From assembly GCA_032718475.1 (NCBI GenBank), contig JAUCBJ010001676.1, positions 1 through 45,242 of the forward strand: 45,242 nt of DNA, written 5' to 3'. A model generated the notes under the pieces. That model did not search any database. It was not told where the DNA came from and was given only the letters and a program-made list of their open reading frames with translations. A program made the position numbers and the translations under genes. Source of the DNA: Nemertoderma westbladi. Its lineage: Eukaryota > Animalia > Xenacoelomorpha. Shown here in pieces: positions 1 to 45,242 of this stretch (position 1 is the stretch's first letter; each line of letters opens with the position of its first letter).

Positions 1-154
1 GTTGTGTCATACTATACTATACTGCTATATATCTCAGACTATTATACCTTTATGCATATTACCGAACATCAGAACTCTTTTACCTTTCACACACGGCGGG
101 GACGCGTGGATAGAAAACCCAACGGATAAACCGGGATCCGTAGATCCCGTCACA
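1..154 (+). mobile_element. 3' end of an LTR (solo or 3' LTR) related to the BEL/Pao LTRs at 31825 and 44958, in the opposite orientation, within a DNAJC13 intron
   Basis: Reverse complement reads TGTGACGGGATC..GGATCCCGGTTTATCCG..CACGCGTCCCCGCCGTGTGTGAA.GTAAAAGAGTT, closely matching 31825-31920. Ends in ...GTCACA and is followed directly by the microsatellite, with no internal element sequence. Confidence 0.85.
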
Positions 155-8221: not shown

Positions 8222-8429
8222 GGAGCAGAAAGCCAATCCAGATATAAATTGGCGTCTTCCGGAAGACTTCGCCGTAGTTTACGCTGATATTGAGGGAGAA
8301 TTAGTTATAGGGGGAGTTTATTTAAGATTGTACATCTCGCAACCGGCGTGGGTCCTACGGAAACCTAAAGAATTCCTTGTGGAAATATTAGATAAACTCA
8401 TTCAACTTAGCAGTTACCAAAACCCACAG
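8222..8429 (+). CDS. DNAJC13: DNAJC13 exon (EQKANPDINWRLPEDFAVVY...GGVYLRLYISQPAWVLRKPKEFL...NPQ), phase 2-0
   Basis: Conserved W.LPEDF and GGV.LR...QPAWVLRKP.EFL motifs; ttcccAG acceptor, CAG|GTAAGT donor at 8430. Confidence 0.95.
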
Positions 8430-17400: not shown

Positions 17401-17840
17401 TAGATAAACTCATTCAACTTAGCAGTTACCAAAACCCACAGGGAAGTGGGACCTGGAAATATTAGATAAACTCATTCAACTTAGCAGCTACCAAAACCCA
17501 TAGGTAAGTGGGACCTGGAAATATTAGATAAACTCATTCAACTTAGCAGTTACCAAAACCCACAGGGAAGTGGGACCTGGAAATATTAGATAAACTCATT
17601 CAACTTAGCAGTTACCAAAACCCACAGGGAAGTGGGACCTGGAAATATTAGATAAACTCATTCAACTTAGCAGCTACCAAAACCCATAGGTAAGTGGTAC
17701 CTGGAAATATTAGATAAACTCATTCAACTTAGCAGTTACCAAAACCCACAGGGAAGTGGGACCTGGAAATATTAGATAAACTCATTCAACTTAGCAGTTA
17801 CCAAAGCCCACAGGGAAGTGGGACCTAGAAATATTAGATA
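8380..17840 (+). repeat. 62-bp minisatellite, ~150 copies, made of the last ~50 nt of the exon plus the 5' splice site
   Basis: Unit TGGAAATATTAGATAAACTCATTCAACTTAGCAGTTACCAAAACCCACAG|GTAAGTGGGACC; the first copy is the real exon end. Confidence 0.98.
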
Positions 17841-19460: not shown

Positions 19461-20098
19461 AAGCCCGTGAAGCCAATTTTAAAAATCGCTTATACACATT
19501 TAATCTCAATAATTTCACACGTGGCTTAAATCAATTGAAAGCGGAGAGTCTTACACGTCTTTTGACACCACAATTAATTAAATTCAAGATGGGAAAGATT
19601 GTTGAAATTCTGTTCACAATTGCAAACTCTGCGGATTACCTGATCTGTATGCTAGCACTCAGCCCTTGCACTTGCAGCTTACACCATTTAAGTTGGGTTT
19701 ACCGGTGACTAGTGCACATTTTTAATATTCAAGTAGCCTTACCAATTATTATAGTACCGGCTGACCGGTATTAAAAGCTTTTTTAAATCTAACCTGTAGT
19801 CCTTTCCGTAATCAATACAGATTGGAATGTAGTACTGCTGCTGGAAACAGCATTTTATCAATGTTCATCATCATGAATTTATTTAATTGCCGTGTCAAAA
19901 GACGTGCAAGACTCCCCGCTTTCAATTGATTTAAGCCACGTGTGAAATGATTGAGATTATAAGTGTAGACCTACTTAAATGTATCTAAAATCACCCTCCA
20001 TAGAAACCAATATAAGAACTTATCTGAGCACTGCGTAGTGACGTCAAATATGTAGCAGCCAATCACAGCCGATTTTCAAAATTGGCCTCCCGGGCCTA
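19461..20098. mobile_element. Non-autonomous foldback/MITE-like DNA element
   Basis: Outer imperfect inverted repeats (AGCCCGTGAAGCCAATTTTAAAAATCG versus CGATTTTCAAAATTGGCCTCCCGGGCC) and inner ~100-bp inverted repeats (~19490-19590 versus ~19870-19968); possible TA TSD. Confidence 0.7.
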
Positions 20099-20425: not shown

Positions 20426-20525
20426 GTCAATGAACTTCTGCAGAAAAGTAGTGTTTGGGCGGAATACAGAGACCAGAAACACGATTTGTTTATAAAAGAT
20501 ACCCCAGTAGCTGGTTACTTAACTG
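20426..20525 (+). CDS. DNAJC13: DNAJC13 exon ([34 protein letters not shown]), phase 0-1
   Basis: Conserved [10 protein letters not shown] and AGYLTG motifs; tttAG acceptor, GTGAGT at 20526. Not in the ORF track. Confidence 0.95.
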
Positions 20526-23500
20526 GTGAGTTGATTTAACTATAACCCCAGTAGCGGGTTACTTAACTGGTGAGTTGATTTAACTATTTAACCCCAGTAG
20601 CGGGTTACTTAACTGGTGAGTTGATTTATCTATAACCACAGTAGCGGGTTACTTAACTGGTGAGTTGATTTAACTATAACCCCAGTAGCTGGTTACTTAA
20701 CTGGTGAGTTGATTTAACTATAACCCAGTAGCGGGTTACTTAACTGGTGAGTTGATTTAACTATAACACAGTAGCGGGTTACTTAACTGGTGAGTTGATT
20801 TAACTATAACCCCAGTAGCGGGTTACTTAACTGGTGAGTTGATTTAACTATAACCCCAGTAGCGGGTTACTTAACTGGTGAGTTGATTTAACTATAACCC
20901 CAGTAGCGGGTTACTTAACTGGTGAGTTGATTTAACTATAACCCCAGTAGCGGGTTACTTAACTGGTGAGTTGATTTAACTATAACCCCAGTAGCGGGTT
21001 ACTTAACTGGTGAGTTGATTTAACTATAACCCCAGTAGCGGGTTACTTAACTGGTGAGTTGATTTAACTATAACCCAGTAGCGGGTTACTTAACTGGTGA
21101 GTTGATTTAACTATAACCCCAGTAGCGGGTTACTTAACTGGTGAGTTGATTTAACTATAACTCCAGTAGCGGGTTACTTAACTGGTGAGTTGATTTAACT
21201 ATAACCCAGTAGCGGGTTACTTAACTGGTGAGTTGATTTAACTATAACCCCAGTAGCGGGTTACTTAACTGGTGAGTTGATTTAACTATAACCCCAGTAG
21301 CGGGTTACTTAACTGGTGAGTTGATTTAACTATAACCCAGTAGCGGGTTACTTAACTGGTGAGTTGATTTAACTATAACCCCAGTAGCGGGTTACTTAAC
21401 TGCTGAGTTGATTTAACTATAACACAGTAGCGGGTTACTTAACTGCTGAGTTGATTTAACTATAACCCCAGTAGCGGGTTACTTAACTGGTGAGTTGATT
21501 TAACTATAACCCCAGTAGCGGGTTACTTAACTGGTGAGTTGATTTAACTATAACCCCAGTAGCGGGTTACTTAACTGGTGAGTTGATTTAACTATAACCC
21601 CAGTAGCGGGTTACTTAACTGGTGAGTTGATTTAACTATAACCCAGTAGCGGGTTACTTAACTGGTGAGTTGATTTAACTATAACCCCAGTAGCGGGTTA
21701 CTTAACTGGTGAGTTGATTTAACTATAACCCAGTAGCGGGTTACTTAACTGGTGAGTTGATTTAACTATAACCCCAGTAGCGGGTTACTTAACTGGTGAG
21801 TTGATTTAACTATAACCCCAGTAGCGGGTTACTTAACTGGTGAGTTGATTTAACTATAACCCCAGTAGCGGGTTACTTAACTGGTGAGTTGATTTAACTA
21901 TAACCCCAGTAGCGGGTTACTTAACTGGTGAGTTGATTTAACTATAACCCCAGTAGCGGGTTACTTAACTGGTGAGTTGATTTAACTATAACCCCAGTAG
22001 CGGGTTACTTAACTGGTGAGTTGATTTAACTATAACCCAGTAGCGGGTTACTTAACTGGTGAGTTGATTTAACTATAACCCCAGTAGCGGGTTACTTAAC
22101 TGGTGAGTTGATTTAACTATAACCCCAGTAGCGGGTTACTTAACTGGTGAGTTGATTTAACTATAACCCCAGTAGCGGGTTACTTAACTGGTGAGTTGAT
22201 TTAACTATAACCCCAGTAGCGGGTTACTTAACTGGTGAGTTGATTTAACTATAACCCCAGTAGCGGGTTACTTAACTGGTGAGTTGATTTAACTATAACC
22301 CAGTAGCGGGTTACTTAACTGGTGAGTTGATTTAACTATAACCCCAGTAGCGGGTTACTTAACTGGTGAGTTGATTTAACTATAACCCCAGTAGCGGGTT
22401 ACTTAACTGGTGAGTTGATTTAACTATAACCCCAGTAGCGGGTTACTTAACTGGTGAGTTGATTTAACTATAACCCCAGTAGCGGGTTACTTAACTGGTG
22501 AGTTGATTTAACTATAACCCCAGTAGCGGGTTACTTAACTGGTGAGTTGATTTAACTATAACCCAGTAGCGGGTTACTTAACTGGTGAGTTGATTTAACT
22601 ATAACCCAGTAGCGGGTTACTTAACTGGTGAGTTGATTTAACTATAACCCCAGTAGCGGGTTACTTAACTGGTGAGTTGATTTAACTATAACCCCAGTAG
22701 CGGGTTACTTAACTGGTGAGTTGATTTAACTATAACCCCAGTAGCGGGTTACTTAACTGGTGAGTTGATTTAACTATAACCCCAGTAGCGGGTTACTTAA
22801 CTGGTGAGTTGATTTAACTATAACCCAGTAGCGGGTTACTTAACTGGTGAGTTGATTTAACTATAACCCAGTAGCGGGTTACTTAACTGGTGAGTTGATT
22901 TAACTATAACCCCAGTAGCGGGTTACTTAACTGGTGAGTTGATTTAACTATAACCCCAGTAGCGGGTTACTTAACTGGTGAGTTGATTTAACTATAACCC
23001 CAGTAGCGGGTTACTTAACTGGTGAGTTGATTTAACTATAACCCAGTAGCGGGTTACTTAACTGGTGAGTTGATTTAACTATAACCCAGTAGCGGGTTAC
23101 TTAACTGGTGAGTTGATTTAACTATAACCCCAGTAGCGGGTTACTTAACTGGTGAGTTGATTTAACTATAACCCCAGTAGCGGGTTACTTAACTGGTGAG
23201 TTGATTTAACTATTTAACCCCAGTAGCGGGTTACTTAACTGGTGAGTTGATTTAACTATAACCCCAGTAGCGGGTTACTTAACTGGTGAGTTGATTTAAC
23301 TATAACCCCAGTAGCGGGTTACTTAACTGGTGAGTTGATTTAACTATAACCCCAGTAGCGGGTAACTTAAATGGTGAGTTGATTTAACTATAACCCCAGT
23401 AGCGGGTTACTTAACTGGTGAGTTGATTTAACTATAACCCAGTAGCGGGTTACTTAACTGGTGAGTTGATTTAACTATAACCCAGTAGCGGGTTACTTAA

Positions 23501-23740
23501 CTGGTGAGTTGATTTAACTATAACCCCAGTAGCGGGTTACTTAACTGGTGAGTTGATTTAACTATAACCCCAGTAGTGGGTTACTTAACTGGTGAGTTGA
23601 TTTAACTATAACCCAGTAGCGGGTTACTTAACTGGTGAGTTGATTTAACTATAACACAGTAGCGGGTTTCTTAACTGGTGAGTTGATTTAACTATAACCC
23701 CAGTAGCGGGTTACTTAACTGGTGAGTTGATTTAACTATA
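20501..23740 (+). repeat. 43-44-bp minisatellite, ~74 copies, made of the last 25 nt of the exon plus the 5' splice site
   Basis: Unit ACCCCAGTAGCGGGTTACTTAACTG|GTGAGTTGATTTAACTATA; the first copy is the real exon end. Confidence 0.98.
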
Positions 23741-27798: not shown

Positions 27799-28467
27799 TA
27801 GGTCATAGAGCACTTCCACGCACTTTCATATGACCTAACAGTTAGGTCATAGAGCACTTCCACGCACTTTCACATGACCTAACAGTTAGGTCATAGAGCA
27901 CTTCCACGCACTTTCATATAACCTAACAGTTAGGTCATAGAGCACTTCCACACACTTTCATAAGACCTAACAGTTAGGTCATAGAGCACTTCCACGCACT
28001 TTCATATGACCTAACAGTTAGGTCATAGAGCACTTCCACGCACTTTCATATTACCTAACAGTTAGGTCATAGAGCACTTCCACGCACTTTCATATTACCT
28101 AACAGTTAGGTCATAGAGCACTTCCACGCACTTTCATATGACCTAACAGTTAGGTCATAGAGCACTTCCACGCACTTTCATATGACCTAACAGTTACGTC
28201 ATAGAGCACTTCCACGCACTTTCATATGACCTAACAGTTAGGTCATAGAGCACTTCCACGCACTTTCATATGACCTAACAGTTAGGTCATAGAGCACTTC
28301 CACGCACTTTCATATGACCTAACAGTTAGGTCATAGAGCACTTCCACGCACTTTCATATGACCTAACAGTTAGGTCATAGAGCACTTCCACGCACTTTCA
28401 TATGACCTAACAGTTAGGTCATAGAGCACTTCCACGCACTTTCATATGACCTAACAGTTAGGTCATA
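27799..28467. repeat. 44-bp tandem array, ~15 copies, each containing the palindrome TATGACCTAAC-A-GTTAGGTCATA
   Basis: Unit GGTCATAGAGCACTTCCACGCACTTTCATATGACCTAACAGTTA. Confidence 0.96.
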
Positions 28468-28483
28468 GGCGTCAAGGGGTTAA
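28468..28483 (-). mobile_element. piggyBac terminus with TTAA target site (TTAA|CCCCTTGACGCC on the minus strand)
   Basis: ...GGCGTCAAGGGG|TTAA at 28480-28483, on the 5' side of the minus-strand transposase relic. The matching other end was not identified. Confidence 0.7.
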
Positions 28484-29000: not shown

Positions 29001-29297
29001 TTAAATTAATAATTGTACTAATCCATGTATTATAGATAACCTACAACCTATTTCATTTAACTTGCCAAATTATTATCATATTATTGTATAATGATTATTA
29101 TTTCCATGGATTCATTTTATGTGCCAAACGCCAAAGATTTGTCGGTTTATAACGGGTCGGTTCGAAACAAACAATGGGAATTTATCTATCAAACACATTT
29201 GGTTCAAAAGGGCAATATATTTTAATTGTCATTTATTGATAGTAAATAGGCGAAAATATTGTTTATAAATCACTTTCCTGAAGTTTCACCAACCAAC

Positions 29298-30809
29298 ATG
29301 CTCCTTCAGATAGCAATAGGAGTTGGTACGTTTACACTGGTGGTCTACGTGGCGCGAACAATCCAATGGCGATTGAGATACAAGATGCCACCCGCGCCAC
29401 ACAGCTGGCCGTTACTAGGCAATGCATTTTCGGGACCGAAAAATAAAAAAATGTACCAAACACTAATGGAATGGAGTAAGGAATTCGGCCCGGTTATTAC
29501 ATTGTCTGTGGGTCCGTTTGTTAACGTTGTTACGCTAAACGATATCGAGTCAATTAGAGAAGCGTTCGTACGTAAAGGCAACGAATTCGCTGGGCGACCC
29601 AAGTTTTATTCCGCCGAAATAACAAGCGATAACTACAGCGACATCGCCGCCGCAGATTTCTCGCCACAGTGGAAGTTCCTAAGGAAAACCGCCGCGGGCG
29701 CTTTCAAACATTTTGCGTCGCGGAATCAGGTTGAGGAATTGTCAAGAAAATCCTTCAGGTCAATTACAAGTAGCATCGACCAAAAGGTGGTGGATAAAGA
29801 CGTCCAAAGACATGGGTTCGACCCTGAAGAGACTCTTGCATTACTTGTATTCAATACGGTTGCGGGGCTCTGTTTCAACAAGATCTATGATCCGCAAGAC
29901 AAGGTATTTCAACACATTCACCAACTCTTTGTAGACTTGATTAAAGTTGGCGGAAACGGACTTGTTGCCGATTATATACCGATATTTCGTTACTTTCCGA
30001 CGTCCACTGTGAGGATAATTAAAAGAGCCATGGAGGATTTCTTGGGGTTCATAGAGAAAGAGATCACTGAGCACAAAGAGGAGTTCGATGCTGATCATAT
30101 GAATGATCTCACAGACTACCTCATCTACGAACAGAAACAGTCTCTAGACCACCAAGGGCAACACGATTTCTCAGATTTGGTTCTCAAACATATCCTTTCG
30201 GATACATTTGGCGCCGGTATAGATACAACAAATCGATTGCTTTACTGGGGGCTAGCTTTAATGGCTACCAATCCAGATGTACAGGAACGTTGTGCTACTG
30301 AGTTAAATGAAGAAGTTGGACCCGAGGGGTTACCGGAACTTGGGCAGATGCCTCGATTACCGTACACGGTTGCCACAGTCCACGAGCTTCTACGCTACGC
30401 CACAGTGGCGCCGCTATCCGTTCCACATTCCACCACGCAGGACGTGGAACTACTGGGATATAAACTCCCAAAGGGCACCATGGTGCTCCCCAATCTGTAC
30501 GCGGTCCACTACGACGCCACGAGATGGACTAACCCGGAAGAGTTTAACCCGAATCGGTTTATCCTCAACGGAGAATTCGTTATGAGTTACTCCGAAGGTT
30601 TTCTGCCATTTTCTGCAGGTAGACGAGTCTGTCTAGGTGAAGCTGTTGCTAAACCCGAACTGTTTATCCTTTTCAGCTGTCTGGTACACACGTACGAGTT
30701 TTCTCCTGCTCCAGATAGCCCCCCACCCAATGTGTCTCCCTCGGAGGAAACTTCCGCATTCGAGTTTATGCCGCATCAATACAAAGTTGCGGTCCGGAGA
30801 CGATACTAA
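29298..30809 (+). CDS. Cytochrome P450, clan 2 (CYP17/CYP1/CYP2-like), intronless, 503 aa
   Basis: First ATG at 29298 (ccaacATG); N-terminal membrane anchor, PPAP..WPLLGN hinge, WxxxR, I-helix FGAGIDTT, ELLR, FNPNRF and heme motif FSAGRRVCLG; TAA at 30807-30809. Confidence 0.95.
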   Translation: MLLQIAIGVGTFTLVVYVARTIQWRLRYKMPPAPHSWPLLGNAFSGPKNKKMYQTLMEWSKEFGPVITLSVGPFVNVVTLNDIESIREAFVRKGNEFAGRPKFYSAEITSDNYSDIAAADFSPQWKFLRKTAAGAFKHFASRNQVEELSRKSFRSITSSIDQKVVDKDVQRHGFDPEETLALLVFNTVAGLCFNKIYDPQDKVFQHIHQLFVDLIKVGGNGLVADYIPIFRYFPTSTVRIIKRAMEDFLGFIEKEITEHKEEFDADHMNDLTDYLIYEQKQSLDHQGQHDFSDLVLKHILSDTFGAGIDTTNRLLYWGLALMATNPDVQERCATELNEEVGPEGLPELGQMPRLPYTVATVHELLRYATVAPLSVPHSTTQDVELLGYKLPKGTMVLPNLYAVHYDATRWTNPEEFNPNRFILNGEFVMSYSEGFLPFSAGRRVCLGEAVAKPELFILFSCLVHTYEFSPAPDSPPPNVSPSEETSAFEFMPHQYKVAVRRRY

Positions 30810-31824
30810 TGTAGATGTTCGTAATTATTTGGTGCCAACAATCAATTTAGTTGTGGAACTATATGCTACATAATTGCACGCCATTCCGATATCTGCTTGC
30901 GCATAGCACCCCACACACACAACGATCATAGGGAATACTCATGCAACAAATATATCAAACTAATCAAACAAACTTAGACTGCTTAAGTATTCATTACATA
31001 GTTAAAACTTTAGTTCTGGATAAAACAACACCCGATAACCAATTAATTCATAAAGAAGTACATTATTAATTTCTTAACTCATAATTTCAATATGAGCAAT
31101 TAATAATATTAATAATTTCTGAAACTTTCGAATGTTGTTACTAAGAAACCATGCGTCCTGGTATATTATCTTGTTATTTGGCCTAATTAATATCAAACCC
31201 TCGAAATAATGTTGTGTCTAGCCATTCCATTTCCATACTATGTCATGTGATGTCATGTTGTCTGTACCATAACGTGCCATGATGTAACATGCCAAGTCCT
31301 ACAAAGTTATTATCATCCTGTGACAGTAATGCCACAACAAATCGCCATGTGCCATGCCATGGATGTCATACCGTGTCAGAGCTGTGCTATCATATTAATT
31401 CATATGCCAATGCCATGGTGTGTCTGTTACGGACACACGTAATATGCCGACGTAAGATGGCGTATATTGTGCCATTTATAGCAATCCAGGCAACCACAAA
31501 GGCTGTGATTTCAGTGATTAAAGTTTAGTACCGTCCGACACCTGTAACGTCCGACACTATTATTATTATGTATTTAATGTTTAAATTGCAGTATATAGTG
31601 TAAAGGCATATTCCAGAACTATATTGTTCGTCTTCTTCTAACATTTATTTTATTCAACAAGAAAGCAATTGGACAACAAGCCAATATAGTGGCTTATGAG
31701 TGCCCGTTTGCCACTGTATTGTTTTTATATGCATGTAGGCCTACTACTAAATACTAGGCCCTAAAACATCAAATATCTTTGTCCATATGATTTTCAATAC
31801 TAAAATAAATAAATATATAAAAAT

Positions 31825-32369
31825 TGTGACGGGATCCAGATGGGATCCCGGTTTATCCGGTTTTGTCAGTTCACGCGTCCCTGCCGTGTGTGAAGAGTAA
31901 AAGAGTTTCGGTTGTTCGACGTGTATAATGTTTGGGTATATGGATATAGATACGGTATAATGGTGGATAAAGTTATTGCATATGGAAGGCGGGAGACGGT
32001 AATTGAAATCCCGGTACTTCCCTAACTAAACTATTGTAAGCTACAGTAACACCAGTAACTAGCACTGAGATAACTGAACTGATATGATTACAGGTTACTG
32101 GTTATATTGCACGGTGGCCTTATTGCTACTCAATCGATGCCTTTCCCCCCTCCTGATTGGTTGGAACCCTTGTTGGCGCCCTTTGGAGTGTTCCCGTTCA
32201 CTCCACCTGTTCTCTCTGGGTTAGGGGTTTGGCCCCTGACCCTCATTGTGTGTTTCCTTCCCATTCTTATTGGGATGGCACGAGTTGGTTAATTACCCAA
32301 TCTCGTGGCTCCCAATATTGTTTATCGGCTTAACTTTATGGGGTGTTAGCGGGATTGAATAAGGTAACA
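31825..32369 (-). repeat. 3' LTR, 545 bp, TG...CA
   Basis: TGTGAC...GTAACA; adjacent CTCCCCCCAT is the PPT (ATGGGGGGAG on minus); nearly identical to 44958-45242. Confidence 0.92.
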
Positions 32370-33012
32370 CTCCCCCCATGCTATCTTCCCGGTAAGAAGA
32401 TAGCATCAACCAAGAAAGTGCGCTACAATCCCACTGGATCCCGATCTAGTATCGGGTGTGGGGTGGAATTCTTTTCTCTCGGAGCCGGCTTTCCAGGCCG
32501 CTCCCTATGGGTATGATAACGCTACCCTGTGTGCCTGGCGTCTCATGTCGGGCCGATCGCGCTCACCTCTCACACGATTTTTGTTTCCCCAACACTTTCG
32601 CCCTATCTCTTCTCCACTCTCACCCTAACTCTCGCACACCCTCGGGCCTCCTCGTCCCTCACTCAGCCTCTTATTCCTCCCCCTCCACACTAGAATTGCA
32701 TCCGCACTCTGTCCGCGCTTCGCACTCTCACTCCGTCCCTCAACCCCACTTTGACTACCTCATCCCTTCTGACGAATCTCACCCCCCTCCCATGCCGTCG
32801 CACTCAAGAAGTGTGAAATCGTCTGGTGTCTCGTCCATAGTGCCATAGTCAGTTTACCCCCCAGTCCCAGTAGCTAATTGAGAAAGGTTGTATGACTATA
32901 GTACTTACTCCGAACGTATATATTTGTAGATTACTGATTGCTACGTACGTACATACAAATTGTACTTATATGATTATTCACATTAATTAAATTTGTACAT
33001 AGTTCGCACGTC

Positions 33013-34093
33013 TCACATGGCGCCTTCCAGGCGCACTACATCAAAGCCCCAGTCCATCCCTCCTTGGCGTCCGTGGTGTCCCCGAAAGTTGCACTTCGGA
33101 TATCGGTTCTGCAACCGTGGACATGCTCCCATCCTGTGGCTCGTCTCGTCGCAGTTGAGACAGCTGGTCCCTTTCTGGAACCGGTACAAGCAGCTCCTTT
33201 CCTGGTGGGTCTGTCTCCCACAGTAGCCGCAACCGAGTACCAATGTCTCTCGCCCCACGTCGTCTTTCATCCCAAGCGATCTCCGCGGTCTGTGGAGTCG
33301 CTGATAGGCGAATTTCTCCACGTTAGCGTCTCTGTCTACGTCGATCTCTCCGCCCCTCTTGGGCATCGTCTCCCCGAATACTACCCGTGGTGCCGTCCCC
33401 GGTTGCTTGCCCAACCTGATAGTGCTCCCCGCGAAATCCATCGCCGGCTCCTTGTGCACCCAGGCCCGCTTGCCGGGTTTGTCCCAGAAGGCTCTCGCCC
33501 CACTGGTCGTCACCACCCTCCCGCCAACCCAGTCCGTGTCCGAGTGGCCTATCCTCTCGATGGGTGGCATCTCTCCGAACTCGTCGTCGTCCTCATCCTC
33601 CTCTCGCAGTGGTTCCAACCCCGGTATCCCGGTGGACCCACTATGTCCCTTTCCACCTTGGTTCCTGCCCGTAACTCTCCATTCCTCAAGCTCCCCTAGC
33701 CTCCTTTGCGGTTGGTCGCCCTCGGCGCCCGCTGGTGTGGGAATCGCTTGCAATCCCGACGTCGACTGTTTCAGTGATCCCACCGTCCACCCTAGTTCTT
33801 TCCCTAGAGACTCCCCCGAACTCCCTGACGAAGCCCAACGAAGTTCGTCTAAGGCTGCTTGTTCCTCGAAGCCGTAGCTCTGCGCCCTAGCTTCCTCCTC
33901 CCTCTCCTCTGCTTCTCTCCTCTCTCACAAGTTTGCCTGCCATCTCGAACTCTGCCCGATCGCTCACCCGTAAGTGGTGCCTTGCCAAGGCGCAAACGTG
34001 ATGAGTGATGGGTTTAGGTGGTTTAAGCTCAGTTCGATGGCCTATCTCTTTCTGAATTTTCGAGTTATTGCCTATTCTTACTACTGTTACCAT
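33013..34093 (-). CDS. Accessory 3' ORF of the retrotransposon with tandem CCHC zinc knuckles (one frameshift near 33900-33925)
   Basis: ATG at 34093; the 33013 frame is open up to ~33924; contains CGYCGRQTHQERSC and CLNCDETSHRMGAC (both CX2CX4HX4C) plus degenerate YPKCNFRGHHGRQG. Confidence 0.7.
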
Positions 34094-34364
34094 AATTTGT
34101 TCCCCTTCTTAGCCCTATTCTTATTCTAATTTTATTTTGATTTTAATTTCAATCCCACTACCTTACTGTTTCCTATTACTTGCGACTGCCTATGGATTAT
34201 TCTATCTCCTAATCCACATTCTGGCCTACTCTGTGGGCCTGTGCAGTACAGTAGTATATGTCGCGCGGCCTACACGATCTATCCAACTGTACTCCTATGC
34301 CCCCCTCTTGCTACTAACTGCTAACTGATATCTATATCCTATATACCCTTCTACCTCTTACTCT

Positions 34365-35000
34365 TTCTCTAACTAACGGTACTACGTACCCTCTAACTCT
34401 CTACCTAACGGTACTACGTACCCTCTAACTCTTCTCTAACTAACGGTACTACGTACCCTCTAACTCTAACTCTTCTCTAACTAACGGTACTATGTACCCT
34501 CTAACTCTAACTCTTCTCTAACTAACGGTACTACGTACCCTCTAACTCTAACTCTTCTCTAACTAACGGTACTACGTACCCTCTAACTCTAACTCTTCTC
34601 TAACTAATGGTACTACGTACCCTCTAACTCTAACTCTTCTCTAACTAACGGTACTACGTACCCTCTAACTCTAACTCTTCTCTAACTAACGGTACTACGT
34701 ACCCTCTAACTCTAACTCTTCTCTAACTAACGGTACTACGTACCCTCTAACTCTCTAACTAACTAGTGGTACTACGTACCCTCTAACTCTAACTAACTAG
34801 TGGTACTACGTACCCTCTAACTCTAACTAACTAGTGGTACTACGTACCCTCTAACTCTAACTAATTAACTAGCGGTACTTACGTACCCTCTAACTCTAAC
34901 TAACTAGCGGTACTTACGTACCCTCTAACTCTAACTAACTAGCGGTACTACGTACCTTCTAACTAACTCTCTGACTAGGTACTACGTACCTCTTAACTAA
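34365..35000. repeat. 31-41-bp tandem array, ~17 copies, centred on the hairpin GGTAC-TAC-GTACC
   Basis: Typical unit CTAACGGTACTACGTACCCTCTAACTCTAACTCTTCTCTAA; lies between the pol stop and the accessory ORF. Confidence 0.93.
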
Positions 35001-35180: not shown

Positions 35181-35642
35181 CTACAGCTCTCCTGTAGGTT
35201 TTTCTGTCCTTTCTATCTTTCCACCTATCCGCACTTCCACCGATCGGACTCTTCCGTCCTCGTCGGAGTAGGTGCCTACAACTCTCGCCAACCGCCATTG
35301 GTTGTTGATGATAGTATCATCCGTAACGATTACGAGATCTCCCTCTCTTATCTCCCTATTCGGCTTCCTCCACTTGCTTCTTTTATGGAGTGTGGGTAGG
35401 TATTCCTCGACCCACCTCCTCCAATACTCTGCGCTAATTGCTTTGGCGACTTTCCAACTTTGGCGGGAGTGTATGTCGTCTGGATCTACACCCCGCATGT
35501 CGATGGTCGCTGGCCTTTCCATCAGGAAATGGCTAGGCGTCAGCACGTCTAGTGACTCAGGGTCATCATTCTCCGGGTATAGCGGTCTGCTATTAATGAT
35601 CCCCTCGCACTTCGCAAGCACCGTCCGTAAGACATCTTCTGT
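35181..35642 (-). CDS. Integrase C-terminal part of the BEL/Pao polyprotein, separated by an insertion
   Basis: IINSRPL, LTPSHFL, WRRWVEEYL, WRLARV and DGRVRSVEVR motifs; joins in frame to ...HMVTEDV when the insert is removed. Confidence 0.9.
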   Translation of the reverse strand, partial: TEDVLRTVLAKCEGIINSRPLYPENDDPESLDVLTPSHFLMERPATIDMRGVDPDDIHSRQSWKVAKAISAEYWRRWVEEYLPTLHKRSKWRKPNREIREGDLVIVTDDTIINNQWRLARVVGTYSDEDGRVRSVEVRIGGKIERTEKPTGEL

Positions 35643-36834
35643 TCGCGCTTTCAGATCTTTGGCAGTTTAACCCGCCAAATTAGGATGTCTTCTAGATAAT
35701 AAATCACTTTTAGCCTCTGACAAGTATTTGATTCACTACACTAGTCGAAACCAATCGGTGCGCGATCATTCACCCGCTGGATATACCCGGGAGATTGGGT
35801 TCGACGGCTTAATCGTATTGCTATGTAAGCCTAATGTATTATTCGACTGACAGTATTATATAATCTCTGACAATATTATTCACCTTCGGGGAATATTAAC
35901 AGTTCCTTTAGGACGTGGCGCTCTATCTATAAAAACAGAGTTATGACTTAAACTACTCACAACGATATGGCTTAGTTACAATTCACATATATGGCGCATT
36001 CTTTAGGAAATGCTTCGTTATCAGTCTCACTCACACACAATGCTGCACAATACTGCACACTGATCTGCCGATCTTCACTGATTTTAGTCACATATAAAAG
36101 GAACACGGACCGAATCATGTAGGGTCTATCAAATAACATTAGATTCACTTCAAACCACTTTAACATAAGTCACAATCGTTATATGTAACCTTTCTCTCTT
36201 ACCTTCGGTATATCAAGAATATTGGGTTTCGGGGTTATTTATCGTTATTCCAAATATAATTCATCAACCATATTATGAAGGACCGACAGTAAATAGCAGT
36301 ATAACAATATAAAGTATGCACAGTGTTACACAGTATGCAGTGTCAGTAAGATATTAAATCAGATAACGGATATATGTCCTTATAATTAAGCCTACTAGTG
36401 TTAGGCTAAAACAGAAAAGCACAAATATTCCAGAAGCCGTTCTTTCCTGGCTCAGGACAGAATGTAAACACTGCCCATAACGCATTGAGTGATTTCTAGG
36501 AAATTTCTGTACAAGAGCCATAAAAATGCTCTGATTGGCTGACTGAACTGAGAGACGCCGTAGAACAAAGAAAATCAACACGTATGAATATCAGCTGTTA
36601 ACCGTCGTCATAGTAACTACTGTTCAAGAGTAGCTATCACCTTTTGCGTCACGGAATTGCCATAGAATCATCAACTATGCCTTTCACAGTACACATACGG
36701 AGGAAATAGGTCTTAGATCCTCTAAAAAACACCGATACAGCAATAATACGGTCTCTTACACCTATTAAATCAACTACAGAGTATTTTAATGTAAAAGATA
36801 ATAAAAATAACGAGGCAATTCAGCAAAGGCTTTT
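35643..36834. mobile_element. 1192-bp AT-rich insertion of unknown class flanked by 11-bp TSD ACATCTTCTGT
   Basis: Direct repeat at 35632-35642 and 36835-36845; removing the insert and one copy restores MVTEDVLRTVLAKCE. Confidence 0.85.
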
Positions 36835-39800
36835 ACATCTTCTGTGACCATGTGGGTGTTCATTAGCTTCGTCATTAGACGCTTTGAACTGCCCACCAGT
36901 CTCTCGACGCATCCTAGTGTATGTGGTGCATACGGCGTCCTCCTCTCCCACTTTACTTGTCGTCTTCTCATGGCTGCCCTGACTTCTTCTCCCTCCAAGA
37001 TGTCCAATGCCTCTGCCATCTCATTCTCTGCGCCCACAAAGTTGGTGCCGTTGTCGCTGTATATCACTGCGATCGTCCCACCTTTGCGGTCCCTAAACCT
37101 TTCTAAGGCATTAATGAATGCTGATGCGGTTGCATCTTGGGCGAGTTCTATCCCTACCGCCCGTGTGTTGTTGCATACGAAGATAATGCCGTAGCGTTTC
37201 TCCGTGTGTCGCATCACTTTGATCTTTATCGGCCCGAACATGTCCACATCGCAATGCGTAAATGGCGGGTCGTGCTGTCTTACCCTACTCGCCGGTAGTG
37301 GCGCCATCTCCTGTACGGCTCGCTCCTTCTTCGCTCGTCGGCAGGTCTGGCACTGCCCCACTACCGCTTTTACCTTCTTCCTCAATTGTTTGACCCAATA
37401 GGTCCTCCTTATCTCTGTGAGGGTTCGGTTGGTGCCCCCATGCAATATGGATTTGTGGGAGTCCCATATAATCTGATGGACTATCGGCGATCCTGTAGGA
37501 ATGATGATGGGTTTCGGTGGTACGACTATGCTGTTGTTGTATCCCACCCTAGAATTCATTACTAGAATCCCGTCGTCATTGAGTTGTGGTGACAGCGTAA
37601 TCAGCTCGCTGTCCCGTCGGAGGTGCTGTTGGTTACCGACGCGTTCCATCTCGTCGCCGTAGTTCTTCCGTTGTTCATAGCGGATCACTGCCTTGGCCGC
37701 TCCTTCCAGATCTATGGTTGTCCTGGTCTTCTTGTCCTTACCAACTCCCGCAAGGAAATTCCCGAAGGCTCTCCAGTACGCCACTAGTTTCTTGGTCTTA
37801 TACCAACTAGTACTGTAACTGAGGAGTTTATCTGTCAGATTATCGCACAGTTCTCGTCCTGGTTGCACGTCCCTAATCTCCCTCACCATCTGGGAGTATA
37901 TCTCTTCTCCCTCTGAATCTCCCTCTTCTCCTTCTGATACCACTTCTGAGCCCGGGTCCACCCTTCTCATCGGCGGCCAGGCCTCCTTATCGCTCAGAAA
38001 TTGTGGCCCATGCTGCCACAATACTTCCTTCTTCAGGAAAGTGTGGCGTTCTACGCCCCTCGACAGCAAGTCCGCTGGGTTCTCGTCTGTTGGGCAGTAG
38101 TGCCACCTTTCCAGTTCTGTGGTCGCCCTTATTTCGTCCACTCTATTTGCGACGAATATCGGGTATCTCGTCCTTTCGTTATGTAGCCAACCAAGCACTA
38201 CCATGGAGTCTGTCCAGTAGTGTGTCTCCACTATGTTGGGAATAGTATCCACTAGGTAGGCTGTGGCTCTAACTCCTAGTCTCGCAGCTGTCAATTCTAA
38301 CTTGGGAACTGATGCTGAATCTGGCGGCGTCGACTTTGCTTTACTAAAGGCTAGTCTGGGCTTATGAGCCCCCTCTCGTTGTACTAAATAGAGTGCCGCT
38401 CCGTACGCCTCCAACGACGCATCGGAGAACATGTGTAGGTCCAGACTCGTCATGTTCCCATCTGGGAAATACACTCGAGGCATGTTGTATGTTCCCATCT
38501 TCTCCAAGTCTCTTGTCCACTTGCTCCACTGTTTCTTGATTTCCGCTTGTACCTCTACGTCCCACTCATCCTTCAATTTGTATACTCTCTTGAGTATCTG
38601 TTTCCCCGTGACTAATAATGGGGATGCTAGGCCTAGGGGATCGTATATCCTTGCTATATACGATACATAGCCCCTCTTCGTGTGGATGTCTGCGCCCTCC
38701 TGGCTCAGCTGATACTTCAGTTCGTCTGTCTCTCTATCCCACACGATTCCCAATGCCTTCTGCTGGGATTCCGTTCTCTTAATCGCCATGTCCTGCCCTT
38801 TGGCTGTTGTGGGATTATCCATGGTCGATTCTGGTTTCCTGTCCTCTATGGCTTTGATAAATTCTTCCGAACTGGATTGGAATTTGGTCAGGTTAAAGCC
38901 GGATCCCTTTAGGATGTCGCGAACCTCGCGCCCTGTATCCAGTATCTCCTTAACCGTATTTCCAGACTCCATTCCGTCGTCTACGTAGAAGCCGCGTCGA
39001 ATCATATCGACGGCCCTACTGCTGTATCTATCTTCCTTCCCCTTTACTGTGTCTCTCACTGCCATAGTCGTCGTAAATGAAGACGACTTGGCCCCCATGT
39101 TCTGTACTACCATCTTATATGCCGGTATTATCGACGGTTCTTCCTCGCCGTTATACCATAAGAAGCGCTGACTGTCGCTATCTTCTTCCGTTACACGGAC
39201 TTGGTTGAACATGCCTTCTATGTCACACGTGAAGGCGTGTTTCCCATTTCTAAATCTAAGTAACACCTCTATGCCCGAATTGTATATGTTTGGGCCTTCT
39301 AACAGGTAGTCGTTTAAGCACTTTCCGTCGGTCTTTGCCGATGCGTCGACTACCATCCTTAGTTTACCTTTCTTTGGATCTAAAGCCACGTGCAGTGGCA
39401 GGTAATATGTCCTATCCGTGTTCGGCTCGTCGACCGGTAACTCCACGGCCCATCCTTTCTCGACGTACTTCTTAATTGTTCTGTGAATGTACTCATTCTT
39501 CTCGGGCCTCCGTTTTAGTGTTTGTTTCAGTTTGCGGAGTCTCGTGAGTACCATCCCCCTATTGTCGGGCAGCGGTATCTTCGGTAGTTTCCATACCATT
39601 CCTATAGTATACCGTCCCTCATCGCATGTCATTGATTCCTCCACGCTTTGTAAAGCCTGCTTGTCTTCTACTGAGGTCCCGACTCCGGTTTCTTTCAGTC
39701 CCTCGAAATCCTGTCTGAGCAGTCTTTTAAGCTGCTCCTCTGCTCCCTCGTCACCCATTTCCTGCATTGTTCCCGCGAACATGCATCCTGATGTCTCCGA

Positions 39801-41741
39801 CATCCTAAATGGTATCTTGCTCTTAATTGGACCACTCAGCGTCCACCCGAATGGTGTTAATATGGCCACCGGGTCACTCTGCTTGTCTTCGCCGAAGACC
39901 GTTTGCATTCTTTCGTGGGCCGTTGGGCAGTCCATGCCTACTATGATGGACACCTTCCTAACGTCCACGTCTGGGATTGAGAAGTCAATGTCGTCCAGGA
40001 ATTTATACTGCTCGACCTCGATGTTGGTTGGTCGCCTGGCATTAATATTAATTGACTCTATCACCTGGATGGGGTCGATGGTTGCCCCATAGTCGCATCC
40101 TGGTGCCATTGCTGCAATTGCGCACCGTCCTGTTCTCATCTCTAGGATATCATCTTTGCTAGAGATGGTTGTTACCGCCATCCTGCTTGGCCTCGTTCTC
40201 AATCCTATCTCTTCGGCCACCCATTCCTCGACTAATGTGAAGGCAGCTCCACTATCAACCAGCATTAATGTTGTTATTGATCGATTGCCTTCCCCAATCA
40301 CTCGCACGGGTACTACTCCAAGTAGCACCGTTCCTCTCTTCTTCGCCCCTACTGTGCTCGTCGCCATCGTTTGGCCTCTCCTTTGACCAAACTTGACCAG
40401 CTTCTCCTTGCACTCCCTTGCTCTATGTCCACTCATTACACATCGTGAGCAGATTTTGTTGCTGAACGCATAATCTATCTGATCTTGCCTAGGTAGCGCC
40501 TGCCAGTACCTGCAGTTCATGGTTTGATGAAGCGCATTTGCGTGTAGCTGGCATTTGCTCTTTGGGTCGTAGCCCTCTTTATACAGCGCATTGCGTATCA
40601 CAGTTGCGTTTGTACCAAAGTCCCTACTATTCTTATTGTTTGGATTCGGCCTACTGGACGTACTGGGGTTATGTTTATTCGTGTTGTTATTGTTCCCCTG
40701 TCCGTTCCATGGTGTGGTCTCATCTTCGGCTAGCTGTGGACTTGCAGTCCCCTGTGTCGCTGCATATGGCAATGATTGCCTGAGTCTCGGTAATGCGTTT
40801 GATGTATTGTGCTCTGGTTTCGGTCTATGGTAGTCTATCTTCGGTCCCTTTCCCAGGCTATCTTCACTATAGACTGGGTCAGTTATTAGCTCAGCCTCGT
40901 AGTTTAAGAAGTTTGACATTTCTTCTAAATCAGGTTCCACACCCTTCTTATCCCGAGTGGAGAAGGCGATTTTTCTCCACTTGTTGCGCAGCCAGTTTGG
41001 TAGTGCCTGCGCTATCGTGGTGATGTTGTTGGACGCATTGAGCTCGTATGGCGCGTCTAGCGTCTTCAGGACGATTAGCGCCTTTTCGACTTTGTTAGCG
41101 AACGTCTTAATGCTAACGGGATTATCCTGTAGGCCACCCGATGTTATGCCTCTCAGCGTCTGCCTGATGATCTTGGCCGGGTGCCCGTATTCCCTATCCA
41201 GTGCCCGCCATGCTGTCGTGAAGCCGCCCTCTATTCCTTGATATTGCCTCACGATATCGTATGCTGGGCCTCCCGTGTACACTTGCAGATACTTTAAGCA
41301 CTCCGCCTGCGTCAAGTTTTTTGTTAGTATTTCGTTACTATACATGCGCCGAAACTGTAGATATTCTTCCGGCCTGCTCCCATCGAATTTGAATGGTTCC
41401 ACGGGTGGTAGCTCGATCCTCGTTTTCAACGCATCGATCAACGTGGCCATCCCCATCGCCTGCGCTTCCAATGGATTCGACGGGTGCTGTATAGTTTCCC
41501 CTGTCTGGTGCGGTTCGTCTGTCCTATTTCTTGATCTTCTCTGACTTGGGTATGTCATCGGGGGTAGCGGCCCCCTCCATATGTCCGTATCACACGACCT
41601 ATTCTCATCCAAGGGTCTCGTTGTTCTTGCTCCTATCGGGGTATATTGTTGATATTGTGATGGGGGAATGTCACCCTGTCCCCCCCCCCCACCGGTATGT
41701 TTGGTACTGGGGTTGATGTTAATATGTTGGGGCCCATACAC
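36835..41741 (-). CDS. BEL/Pao gag-pol core (gag, zinc knuckles, protease, RT, RNase H, integrase)
   Basis: FDGS..EY..F gag, CSRCVMSGHRAREC, LVDSGA, YLPLH..LRMVVDAS, FYVDD, YDPLG, LHMFSDAS, PKLELTAA, NPADLLSRG, HGG/CQTC, DMFGP and SDNGTNF motifs. Confidence 0.96.
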
Positions 41742-44700
41742 CTATTCGCAATAATTCCCCCCTCCCCTGGGTATATGTTATGTCCCTGCATGCTGTAGTC
41801 ATACTGCTGTACTGGTACCAGTATAGGCCTATCAGCTTCTGGCCTACTCGCCGGTATGTATTCCGCGACTTCCGGGTTTAATCCCGTTGTCCACGCTATC
41901 CTATCGCCTACATTGCCTCTCTCAGTATGGCCTATGGTATGTGCAGTAAGGCCTATAGTATGTCCTACAGTCTGCATGTGTCGCTCGGGATCGAAGTTTA
42001 TCCTTCTCGAGTAGTCCCCCCCGCGGCTACCGTATTTTCGATCGGTAGGTATATTCCGTCGGAAAGTTTCTCTTCGACCCCCCTCTCTACTGTTCTCATC
42101 TTCGTACCGGTACATCGCGTACCCCTCTCTCGGCGCGTAGTGCGCCTCGCCGGGTCGCATCTCTCCGGGGCGACGGCAATCTCCCGGAGTCCGACCCCAC
42201 TGACTCTCTGTTCTCATCTCGACTACCGACGGCTCGCTATCCGTCCTCGCTCTTCTATCGTTTGCGGCGATACTTCTACTACTGTCTTCTCTTCTTCTCC
42301 TTTCAGTGGAGTATTCCCGCTCGTGAGATCTCTCGTCGACCTCCCGGTTAAACCCCACTGTTCTTCTTCCCTCTTCTGATCGGGCTCGACGCTTTGTCCG
42401 CCCTCTCACGACGTCAACCTGTCTCTCTCTGCTCGGTCGCACGCCGCTGGGGATACTCGCAATCCCCCTACTACTTTCCGTCGCTGGTTGTTGCGGTTTA
42501 CCTATTTCGGCCCGCGCATTATCCACTGACGGCTGTGGGACACTCTCTGCCCCCCCCCCCCCTTTCGCCGCTAACTCGCTGTTGTGGGGCCCCTGTAGCC
42601 CCCCCCCCCCTTTCGCCACATCCAACTTCGCTATCCCTCACCCCGCTACTATATCCCTCTCTAGTCGACACATCAACCCTACCGCGGTCGGGTCTATTCA
42701 CCCCCGCCTCTCCCTCTGCTATTGCGTGGCCTACCAGGCCCTCTGCACCCTGCCTACCAACTATGTGGCCTACCAGGCCCTCGCTGGGTCTATTCAACCC
42801 AGCCACCCCCTGCCTACCAACTACGTGGCCTACCAGGCCCTCGCTCGGTCTACCTAACCCAGCTACTCCCTGCCTACCAACTACGTGGCCTACCAGGCCC
42901 TCGTTTGTCTGGCTATACACGCCCGACGTGTTTACGTTAATAGCACCCATATCGGAAACGGAATTAATTTGTTCGTTCGAAATAAAATCATTTGAATTAT
43001 TTTGTGCGACTACACTATCTGAATTATTTTGTAAATTCGGGCTCGGATTATTATTTAAGTTATTTTGATTATTTTGTGTAATTACGTTACTTAAATTATT
43101 TTGTAAGTTCGAATTTGGGTTATTACTTTGATTACTTGGATTATTTTGCGTAGCTACGTTAATATTAGAATTATTTTCTACATTAATAATAGAATTATTT
43201 TCTACATTAATATTAGGATTGTTCTGATTTAAATTTAAATTACTACCACTAGGCAAAGTATTTCCTGCAATAAAGGTTTGATTAGAATTATCCCATACGG
43301 TACTATTAATATTAACCACGTCTACTGTACCATTATCATTATTACCCCCCCCGCCCATACGGTCACACCAGTTTTGGGTCTGTCGTGCGGTCCAAGTGGG
43401 GTATTAATAAATGTATCCACGGCCCCTGGCTCCCCTAGAATACTCGAGCCAGTCCCGCTCTCAGACGTCCCCGCCCGCTCCAGTTGCAGCTCGTGCATGC
43501 GTCTAATCCTATGTTCCCCAAGCTCACTTTGGCGTCTCTTTAGTTCCTTTTGCTCTCGCTCAGCTTCTACCATTCTCCTCTCACATTCCCGCGCGTCCCG
43601 CTGAGCCAGCTCTGCTATTTTTCTAGTGCTCTCCCTTCGCCTCGCTTCACGCTCCTTACGTTTACTTTCCTTTCTCGCCTCATACTCCTTGCGTTCCGCC
43701 TCACGCTCCTTGCGTTCCTTTTCCTCTCTCGCCTCACGCTCCTTGCGTTCCCTTTCCTCTCTCGCCTCACGCTCCCTACACTCCTTTTCCTCTATTTCCT
43801 CATACTCCCTAAGGCTTCTCAAAGCCCTTTCGGCCTTCTCTCCGGTTTCTCTAATCAATGCCGCTTCCCTCTCTAGCCGCATTCTCCCCTCCTCCAGCCG
43901 TTCATCCATTTCCTTCTGACCTTGCTCTATCAGCTCGAGACGGTACGCGGCACCTACCTCTCTCACCCGTCTTCCTTTCGCAGAGGATGTAGCGGACTTA
44001 TCGGTTACGACGGACTCCCTCCGCCTTCCCGATCTACTATCTTTCCCCCGCTTCCCGGAACTTCCTCCGACCGACGAGGCCGAATCCTCGGGGTTAACCT
44101 CGGATTCGCCCCCTTCAGGTCCCCTCCAGCCCACTAATTTTACTCCCCGGGCATCGACCAAGTATGGCCCTATGTACACTGACGCTACGCTAGGTTCCAT
44201 ACTCCCACATTCCCATAGTTCGAACAGTTCACTGGCAACCCCTTTCACTCTCTCCTCGGCTAGTTCTCTCTGCCCAAAACGCATTAGGTAATTAAAGTGT
44301 CTATCCGACTCACCTAGTCGTTTCCTCAGTCTCACCTCGTCTATCTTCGCCCCTTCCTTCTTAGCGTCCTTTAGTAGTCTCTGGGTCGCGTTGTAGGCCC
44401 GTCGAAGTCGATCAGAAACCCCGACGTCCTCGTCGCCGACCTCTCTTCCGTCTCTCCGGGTCCGACGTCGTACCGGCGGCCCCACCGTCGCCGTTCCGGC
44501 GGGCCGTCTGTCGCCCTCGGCCTGTGGCTGGCCGGCGACATCGGTACCGATATCTCTTTTGTCTCTCTGCGTCCGGGGCCGCACCGTCGGCCCCACCGTC
44601 GCCGTTTCGGTGGGCCGCTCGTCGCCCTCGGCCTGTGGCTGGCCGGCGACATCGGTGCGCCGACCCCCGTCCCGTGTCGACTCATCTCCTTCTCCCTCCG

Positions 44701-44885
44701 TCTCGCTCTCTCTTCCTCTCGGCTCGACCTCGGGTTCCAGGCCCCCCCCCATCCTGAACTGCCGGATGACCCGTTACCGATGGGTCCGGCGTTGTGGGCC
44801 TGTATCGCCTGGTTGCAGCCTCGCGGATCTTTAATTCTTCTTCGTCCGGGGTCCGCGTCGGCGTTGTCTCTCCCGACTGACTCAT
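41680..44885 (-). CDS. Probable N-terminal extension of the polyprotein (charged coiled-coil, Asn-rich, repeat-rich), broken by frameshifts at poly-G runs
   Basis: Four overlapping ORFs tile the region from ATG 44885 to the gag core, and every overlap contains a C8-C13 run. Confidence 0.7.
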
Positions 44886-44957: not shown

Positions 44958-45242
44958 TGTGACGGGATCCAGATGGGATCCCGGTTTATCCGGTTTTGTC
45001 AGTTCACGCGTCCCCGCCGTGTGTGAAGAGTAAAAGAGTTTCGGTTGTTCGACGTGTATAATGTTTGGGTATATGGATATAGATACGGTATAATGGTGGA
45101 TAAAGTTATTGCATATGGAAGGCGGGAGGCGGGAGACGGTAATTGAAATCCCGGTACTTCCCTAACTAAACTATTGTAAGCTACAGTAACACCAGTAACT
45201 AGCACTGAGATAACTGAACTGATATGATTACAGGTTACTGGT
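44958..45242 (-). repeat. 5' LTR (partial, truncated by the window end)
   Basis: Matches 31825-32102 apart from one substitution and a 7-bp duplication that I could see by eye. Confidence 0.95.

Follow-up and report, generated by a model that had tools for sequence, protein, structure and literature searches.

A BEL/Pao retrotransposon in the analysed contig

The window, that is the whole stretch of 45,242 nucleotides from Nemertoderma westbladi that was analysed (assembly GCA_032718475.1, contig JAUCBJ010001676.1), carries a BEL/Pao retrotransposon of at least 13.4 kb on its minus strand, with Pfam matches to Peptidase_A17 (E 4e-40), DUF1759 and DUF5641. Its parts, read in the direction of the element, are:

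44958–45242, minus strand: 5' LTR, last 285 bases only (self-BLAST, 97% to 31825–32102); the remainder lies beyond the window end
41633–44773, minus strand: low-complexity sequence preceding the main ORF and spread over three frames (44773–43322, 43403–42519, 42637–41633), no Pfam match
36786–41741, minus strand: gag-pol main ORF of 1651 codons with DUF1759, two knuckles, protease, RT, RNase H (Peptidase_A17) and the beginning of the integrase (Pfam)
35643–36834, strand unassigned: AT-rich nested insert, about 1.19 kb long, that interrupts the integrase and lies between the two copies of an 11-base duplication (36845–36835 and 35642–35632)
35181–35642, minus strand: integrase tail with DUF5641 (Pfam, E 2e-24); pol stop at 35181
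34344–34964, strand unassigned: tandem array of 34–41-base units within the pol–ORF3 spacer (repeat scan)
33013–33924, minus strand: extra ORF (ORF3), 303 codons stop to stop, with a predicted N-terminal helix, an acidic patch, a basic middle part and a knuckle array
31825–33017, minus strand: 3' LTR; the end at 31825 is firm, while four candidates exist for the start, 33017 among them, each with a 5-base inverted match to that end

The protease-RT-RNase H-integrase arrangement of pol, whose domains are of the Pao type, is that of the Belpaoviridae (BEL/Pao), and together with the LTR pair it confirms the assignment made in a first-pass annotation of this DNA. The 3' ends of the two LTRs, at 44958 and 31825, match over 285 bases (277 identities in 278 aligned bases and one 7-base gap), with the LTR start and the target duplication falling outside the window. 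Self-BLAST gave no further LTR pair within the element, and there were no Rfam or tRNA matches. The sequence following the 5' LTR (44957–44935) begins without TGG, and no standard primer-binding site is evident; in BEL/Pao, one for tRNA-Arg/Gly would be expected, along with a polypurine tract ahead of the 3' LTR. The copy in the window is defective, since the 1.19-kb insertion interrupts its integrase and the stretch preceding the main ORF is spread over three frames. The insertion itself shows an 11-base target duplication, no obvious terminal inverted repeats and no long ORF, and its class is unassigned.

The boundary of the 3' LTR bears on the nature of ORF3. A gene encoded in U3 is known from MMTV (sag), and ORF3 might similarly lie inside a very long 3' LTR that starts near a G-rich tract following pol at about 35105. 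The truncation of the 5' LTR by the window end would leave room for such an arrangement, and no clear polypurine tract precedes any of the candidate 3' LTR starts, 33017 included. However, an LTR of about 3.3 kb would be needed, compared to 0.2–1.2 kb for the family (PMC8742986), and an LTR beginning at the candidate 33017, where five bases match the LTR end in inverted orientation, would measure 1.19 kb. We regard a location of ORF3 within the LTR as quite improbable and treat ORF3 as a gene between pol and the 3' LTR.

Elsewhere in the window, a related LTR 3' end (63–154, plus strand) is 80% identical and has the same terminal bases; directly after it follow about 99 copies of a 5-base repeat (154–650). 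An intact, intronless cytochrome P450 ORF of 519 codons (29250–30809, E 2e-101) lies at a distance of about 1 kb from the end of the 3' LTR. Satellite arrays at 2608–7948, 8380–17840, 20501–23740 and 27799–28468, with units of 75/123, 62, 44 and 44 bases, respectively, make up about 40% of the window. A MITE-like inverted repeat of 122 bases, 87% complementary with its arms 231 bases apart, is found at 19493–19967.

The gag-pol region and its relatives

The first-pass annotation stated that the element already has gag knuckles. These are present, but as one His-variant (40553) and one perfect knuckle (40451) instead of the usual three. A triple Cys-His box is named as a hallmark of BEL/Pao in the available portions of two sources (PMC554778; 10.64898/2026.03.22.711591), the former of which describes Tas as likewise lacking it. 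The third box, absent here, is present in most of the full-length top relatives. Between knuckles and protease, gag has a short linker (40553–40410).

The region upstream of the main ORF spans about 3.1 kb and is coding-like, of low complexity, with in-frame internal repeats. Based on a known BEL motif and a coiled-coil-like stretch, it is likely to be the N-terminus of gag, broken by three frame changes. If so, gag-pol would comprise nearly 2800 residues, compared to at most about 2140 in the env-less relatives listed.

All 120 pol relatives listed from a set of 5.8 billion sequences carry the Pao domain (PF05380), and none exceeds 37% identity; no pol homologues were found in metagenome contigs. 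In a tree of 56 sequences, built from all 20 labelled hits passing the length filter and the best 35 unlabelled ones without clade references or an outgroup, the RT/RNase H forms a long lone branch. It possibly represents an unsampled BEL/Pao lineage.

Features of ORF3 in the window copy

ORF3 contains or adjoins the following features:

33890–34093, minus strand: upstream frame of 68 codons from an ATG at 34093; candidate only, with low sibling cover over 33922–34115 and no family match
33924–33925, minus strand: junction 1, with loose contig ends in X2 (3) and X3 (5); siblings differ above it
33571–33609, minus strand: acidic patch, aa 106–118, 9/13 D/E (composition)
33190–33231, minus strand: knuckle 1, CX2CX4HX4C (motif); ligand codons without variants
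33121–33162, minus strand: knuckle 2, CX2CX4HX4C (motif); ligand codons without variants
33061–33102, minus strand: knuckle 3, 2/4 ligands in the window copy, cut by junction 2 at 33064/33065

Several elements of the first description of this ORF stand. It runs in the sense direction between pol and the 3' LTR and is open for 303 codons from 33924 to 33013; the acidic patch is present, and so are the two perfect knuckles, beginning at 33231 and 33162, a pair that did not arise in any of 100000 shuffles of ORF3. The hydropathy of the window copy's frames reaches at most 0.22 and −0.14 over 19 residues, which gives no membrane or signal segment and agrees with the view that the protein is not env-like. 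The charged N-terminal stretch is predicted to be helical and is the only part of the structural model with a pLDDT above 60.

Sibling copies and the native form of the gene

Evidence on sibling copies came from short contigs. Seven sequencing runs were listed, none of them marked as RNA, and three contain at least half of the words. Contigs of X1, X2, X3 and X5 were aligned to 31400–34300; these represent three samples at most, as X1 and X3 stem from one sample, and X5, which may be an RNA run, yielded 10 contigs only and is not counted as evidence. The summed contig depth, which is not a copy number, was 1e4–1e5 over ORF3 compared to 28–78 for unchanged flank contigs. The family is clearly abundant. 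The spacer above ORF3, ORF3 itself and the LTR-side sequence below it were all high-copy in the same runs, and among the 62 indels in 31400–34300, all 12 that were listed lie outside ORF3. None of the siblings' short contigs joins ORF3 with pol or, at a 31-base standard, with the LTR. We consider it probable that ORF3 is a regular part of the window's BEL/Pao family.

The siblings also change the picture of the gene's ends. The ORF had been described as about 360 codons with one frameshift, but the site of the supposed frameshift coincides with 33924/33925, where contigs of X2 and X3 depart from the window and cover decreases about tenfold (33922–34115). As far as the loose letters beyond 33924 could be read by eye, the frame stays open for the few codons visible. 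The sequence at this site more likely reflects a deletion or replacement junction than a frameshift. Consequently, 360 codons is not the native length: 303 codons are open, and the 68-codon piece across the junction is only a candidate for the N-terminus.

At the other end, the third knuckle had been called degenerate, which holds for the sub-lineage of the window copy and not for the family. Two of its ligand positions are non-canonical in the window. More than 99% of the aligned depth disagrees with the window at one of them; for the other, loose ends in X2 (7 and 1 contigs, two variants) read the canonical ligand, and at junction 2 (33064/33065) sibling contigs depart from the window on both sides. 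As siblings differ from the window at both positions in this way, the family appears to have three full knuckles, followed by a longer C-terminus. The end of the ORF is variable, with about 70% of the depth at codon 292 reading a stop there, and contigs with the window copy's tail reach about 5–14 times the flank depth. The tail thus belongs to a small sub-lineage, most copies stopping near codon 292. From the contigs at both junctions, the apparent frameshift and the degenerate knuckle are more likely damage within a sub-lineage than features of the gene.

Selection on ORF3

For the analysis of selection, X1–X3 contigs were aligned to 32965–33420, for which 40 of the 41 variant rows at 8% or more were listed. 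The tested region (33061–33420) comprises 360 bases or about 120 codons, with one reference copy and summed contig depth, and its variants may stem from few subfamilies. It contained 37 variants, 29 of which had a pooled share below 0.95 and were thus polymorphic among siblings. Among these 29, 17 were synonymous, compared to an expected fraction of 0.22–0.31 (p 3e-5 to 2e-3), which corresponds to an omega of about 0.2–0.3, and 19 fell on third positions (p 4e-4). The excess persisted when multiply hit codons were dropped (11/15 synonymous, p 7e-4). Four other frames showed no excess of synonymous variants; the antisense frame with the same third positions gives a similar score, but is interrupted by three stops there. 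No indels at 8% or more occurred in the ORF part of 32965–33420. The eight ligand codons were hit by none of the 37 variants, which is not significant alone (about 2.5 hits expected).

The differences private to the window copy look neutral. Within 33061–33420, 2 of its 8 near-fixed differences are synonymous, and in a wider near-fixed set, a share-ranked subset of 16 out of 306 sites, 3 of 16 are, unlike in the siblings (Fisher p 0.013); for the 8 sites alone the contrast is not significant (2/8, p 0.12).

This private pattern is what a captured fragment decaying without constraint would show. The first-pass annotation had set absence or neutral decay of the ORF in sibling copies against its own reading; the siblings instead display the synonymous and third-position excess and no common indel, which largely refutes neutral decay and leaves it with very little probability. 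The pattern of substitutions indicates that ORF3 is very probably a real gene under selection.

Homologue and structure searches

HMM and structure searches had been proposed along with the first description, and they returned knuckle-type matches and nothing beyond generic knuckles. ORF3 matched no Pfam or PHROG family, except weakly zf-CCHC_4 (E 0.03). In the 5.8-billion set it had no homologues of similar or smaller length, and metagenome and viral contigs gave no match. Against 1.84 billion representatives, three weak hits were obtained: two knuckle-only proteins, one of them from a plant, and one bacterial repeat protein, whose similarity we judged to be due to chance. The predicted folds are of low confidence (pLDDT 41 and 43).

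By-eye inspection of the middle part had suggested a resemblance to a cold-shock domain, which profile, hhalign and fold comparisons all failed to support. With a profile of eight bacterial proteins, the ORF3 region scored below 1305 of the 1445 scored shuffles, hhalign gave a probability of 0.2%, and the third-ranked hit for the pLDDT-43 model, a cold-shock protein (E 6.5), was not counted. A match to an AAV capsid (E 0.44) was likewise taken as chance.

The best PDB matches were retroviral nucleocapsids (E 0.0017), and LIN28 knuckles followed without significance (E 2.7–2.9). The former could point to a second nucleocapsid, that is a separately made, co-packaged knuckle protein compensating for a two-knuckle gag, and the window copy's gag indeed has no third Cys-His box. 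Yet any CCHC pair matches retroviral nucleocapsid, and the two-knuckle gag is known from the window copy alone. We regard this role as rather improbable.

A derivation of ORF3 from gag was considered from two sides. It had no BLAST match to 120 BEL polyproteins, and its knuckle spacing is unlike that of the BEL triple box; hence, it is not a copy of a BEL gag. Of 100 BEL polyproteins whose tail was matched, none showed a fused form with a knuckle behind it. ORF3 might instead be the gag or ORF1 end of a different high-copy element. In that case the locus or its sub-lineage would be chimeric and the observed selection would belong to the other element. Non-LTR ORF1 proteins carry three CCHC knuckles behind a coiled coil, which the knuckle array of ORF3 recalls. 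The weak zf-CCHC_4 match, the junctions on both sides of ORF3, the nested insertions that the element takes and the missing contigs to pol would also be in line with a foreign origin. Against it, neither Pfam nor BLAST gave a match to a capsid, RRM, protease or RT within ORF3 or next to it; a gag nucleocapsid fragment would be expected to have a capsid domain upstream and a protease downstream of its knuckles. Moreover, the element contains no second LTR pair, ORF3 is high-copy in the same runs as the sequences above and below it, and it occupies the usual third-gene slot in sense orientation. A nested fragment of another element's gag, which the first-pass annotation had named as an objection, is weakened but keeps some probability, as the sibling contigs are too short to connect ORF3 with pol. 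We consider such an origin unlikely and a gene proper to the BEL/Pao family the better reading.

Putative function of ORF3

CCHC knuckles are established as binding zinc and single-stranded RNA, and the motif suggests the same for ORF3. By analogy with CERV and Rev, we tentatively propose, at somewhat less than even probability, that ORF3 encodes a trans-acting, RNA-binding accessory protein that exports or stabilises the genomic RNA of the element. With its three CCHC knuckles, the protein would bind unspliced genomic RNA from the element itself and so aid its export or its stabilisation for packaging. The charged N-terminal helix may mediate self-association. The protein might be translated from a separate message, spliced or internally started, given that the pol stop lies 1.1 kb upstream and that splicing is typical of third ORFs in LTR elements according to the accessible part of PMC5408684.

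Action in trans is suggested by the sub-lineage in the window, which appears to have inserted recently, as judged from its nearly identical LTR ends, with an already damaged ORF3. The low synonymous share of its private differences (3 of 16), unlike that of the siblings, points the same way. All 1651 pol codons are open where 3–5 stops would be expected at the decay of ORF3 (P0 0.006–0.04), an expectation that assumes an even rate and no recombination. Nevertheless, the split integrase and the upstream frame changes weaken this argument for ORF3 in particular, as all proteins of this copy may come in trans.

An anti-silencing factor would also employ RNA-binding knuckles. In that role they would bind small RNAs, their precursors or partners of the TUTase/TRAMP type and thereby blunt piRNA/siRNA control by the host, and the product would be a public good, which cheater copies could afford to lose. 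The very high family copy number and the loss of ORF3 in a recently mobile sub-lineage would fit, as would the LIN28 knuckles among the non-significant PDB matches and, as far as the available text of PMC5408684 goes, the DEDDy exonucleases acting on RNA 3' ends among bdelloid ORF3s. No silencing-linked domain was found, though, and the LIN28-like cold-shock idea failed. We consider this function unlikely, too. That ORF3 serves in export or as a chaperone, rather than in anti-silencing or as a second nucleocapsid, is about an even call.

Taken further, it may be speculated, with low confidence, that a deep lineage of the Belpaoviridae has become a 'complex' retroelement in which a triple-knuckle regulator stands in place of env and acts in trans on the element's own RNA or on host small-RNA silencing. 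This gene would have driven the very-high-copy burst and would now be disappearing from cheater sub-lineages, with gag having lost a knuckle of its own. Intact and ORF3-damaged sub-lineages within one genome would offer a natural comparison of cis and trans action.

Comparison with known systems

The element resembles the Belpaoviridae (BEL/Pao, Semotivirus) in its LTRs, the PR-RT-RH-IN order and the presence of DUF1759, Peptidase_A17 and DUF5641. It differs in length (at least 13.4 kb compared to 4.2–10 kb; PMC8742986), in the two knuckles of gag instead of three, and in an RT/RNase H at most 37% identical to the relatives listed. Above all, the third gene described for this family is env or env-like (PMC8742986 and the available part of PMC3118150), whereas the window element encodes a predicted soluble knuckle protein. 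No description of a knuckle-type third ORF in BEL/Pao was found in the literature searched, which included the accessible portions of PMC6338049, PMC2774666, PMC8220671, PMC12451622 and PMC12440569, with most subscription journals, Repbase entries and supplements (including the element set of PMC3118150) outside its scope. Thus, extra ORFs in LTR elements are already established, and the knuckle type in BEL/Pao seems to be undescribed. The replication of BEL/Pao is described as poorly understood (PMC8742986). A selected, non-env RNA-binding gene would, if true, provide a candidate route by which unspliced RNA leaves the nucleus or escapes silencing in this family.

With retroviral nucleocapsid and with LIN28, CNBP, Air1/2 and ZCCHC3, ORF3 shares tandem CX2CX4HX4C knuckles joined by short basic linkers. 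This similarity is confined to the motif, as ORF3 has neither a capsid upstream nor a detected cold-shock domain. In position, it resembles the non-env ORF3s of bdelloids (PMC5408684) and the additional ORFs of plants (PMC7264820), which are family-specific, located between pol and the 3' LTR and typically expressed separately. Within the accessible text of both sources, these encode DEDDy, GDSL, coiled-coil, transmembrane or antisense proteins, the latter of no assigned type, and none of the triple-CCHC type.

The functional analogy is with CERV of the Caenorhabditis elegans element Cer1, a non-env protein that derives partly from the third-ORF slot. In the available part of its description (PMC10309623), CERV combines a zipper-like part with a Cys-rich finger and is required for the export of unspliced genomic RNA. 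The two proteins are likened by description; CERV is reported in the same portion to have a possible C4 finger and a ring-forming domain, in contrast to the CCHC knuckles of ORF3. If the proposed function is true, the Rev/CERV pattern would extend to a further family of reverse-transcribing elements. Cer1 itself is a Gypsy-class element, and an extra ORF has reportedly been described for Cer7 in one paper.
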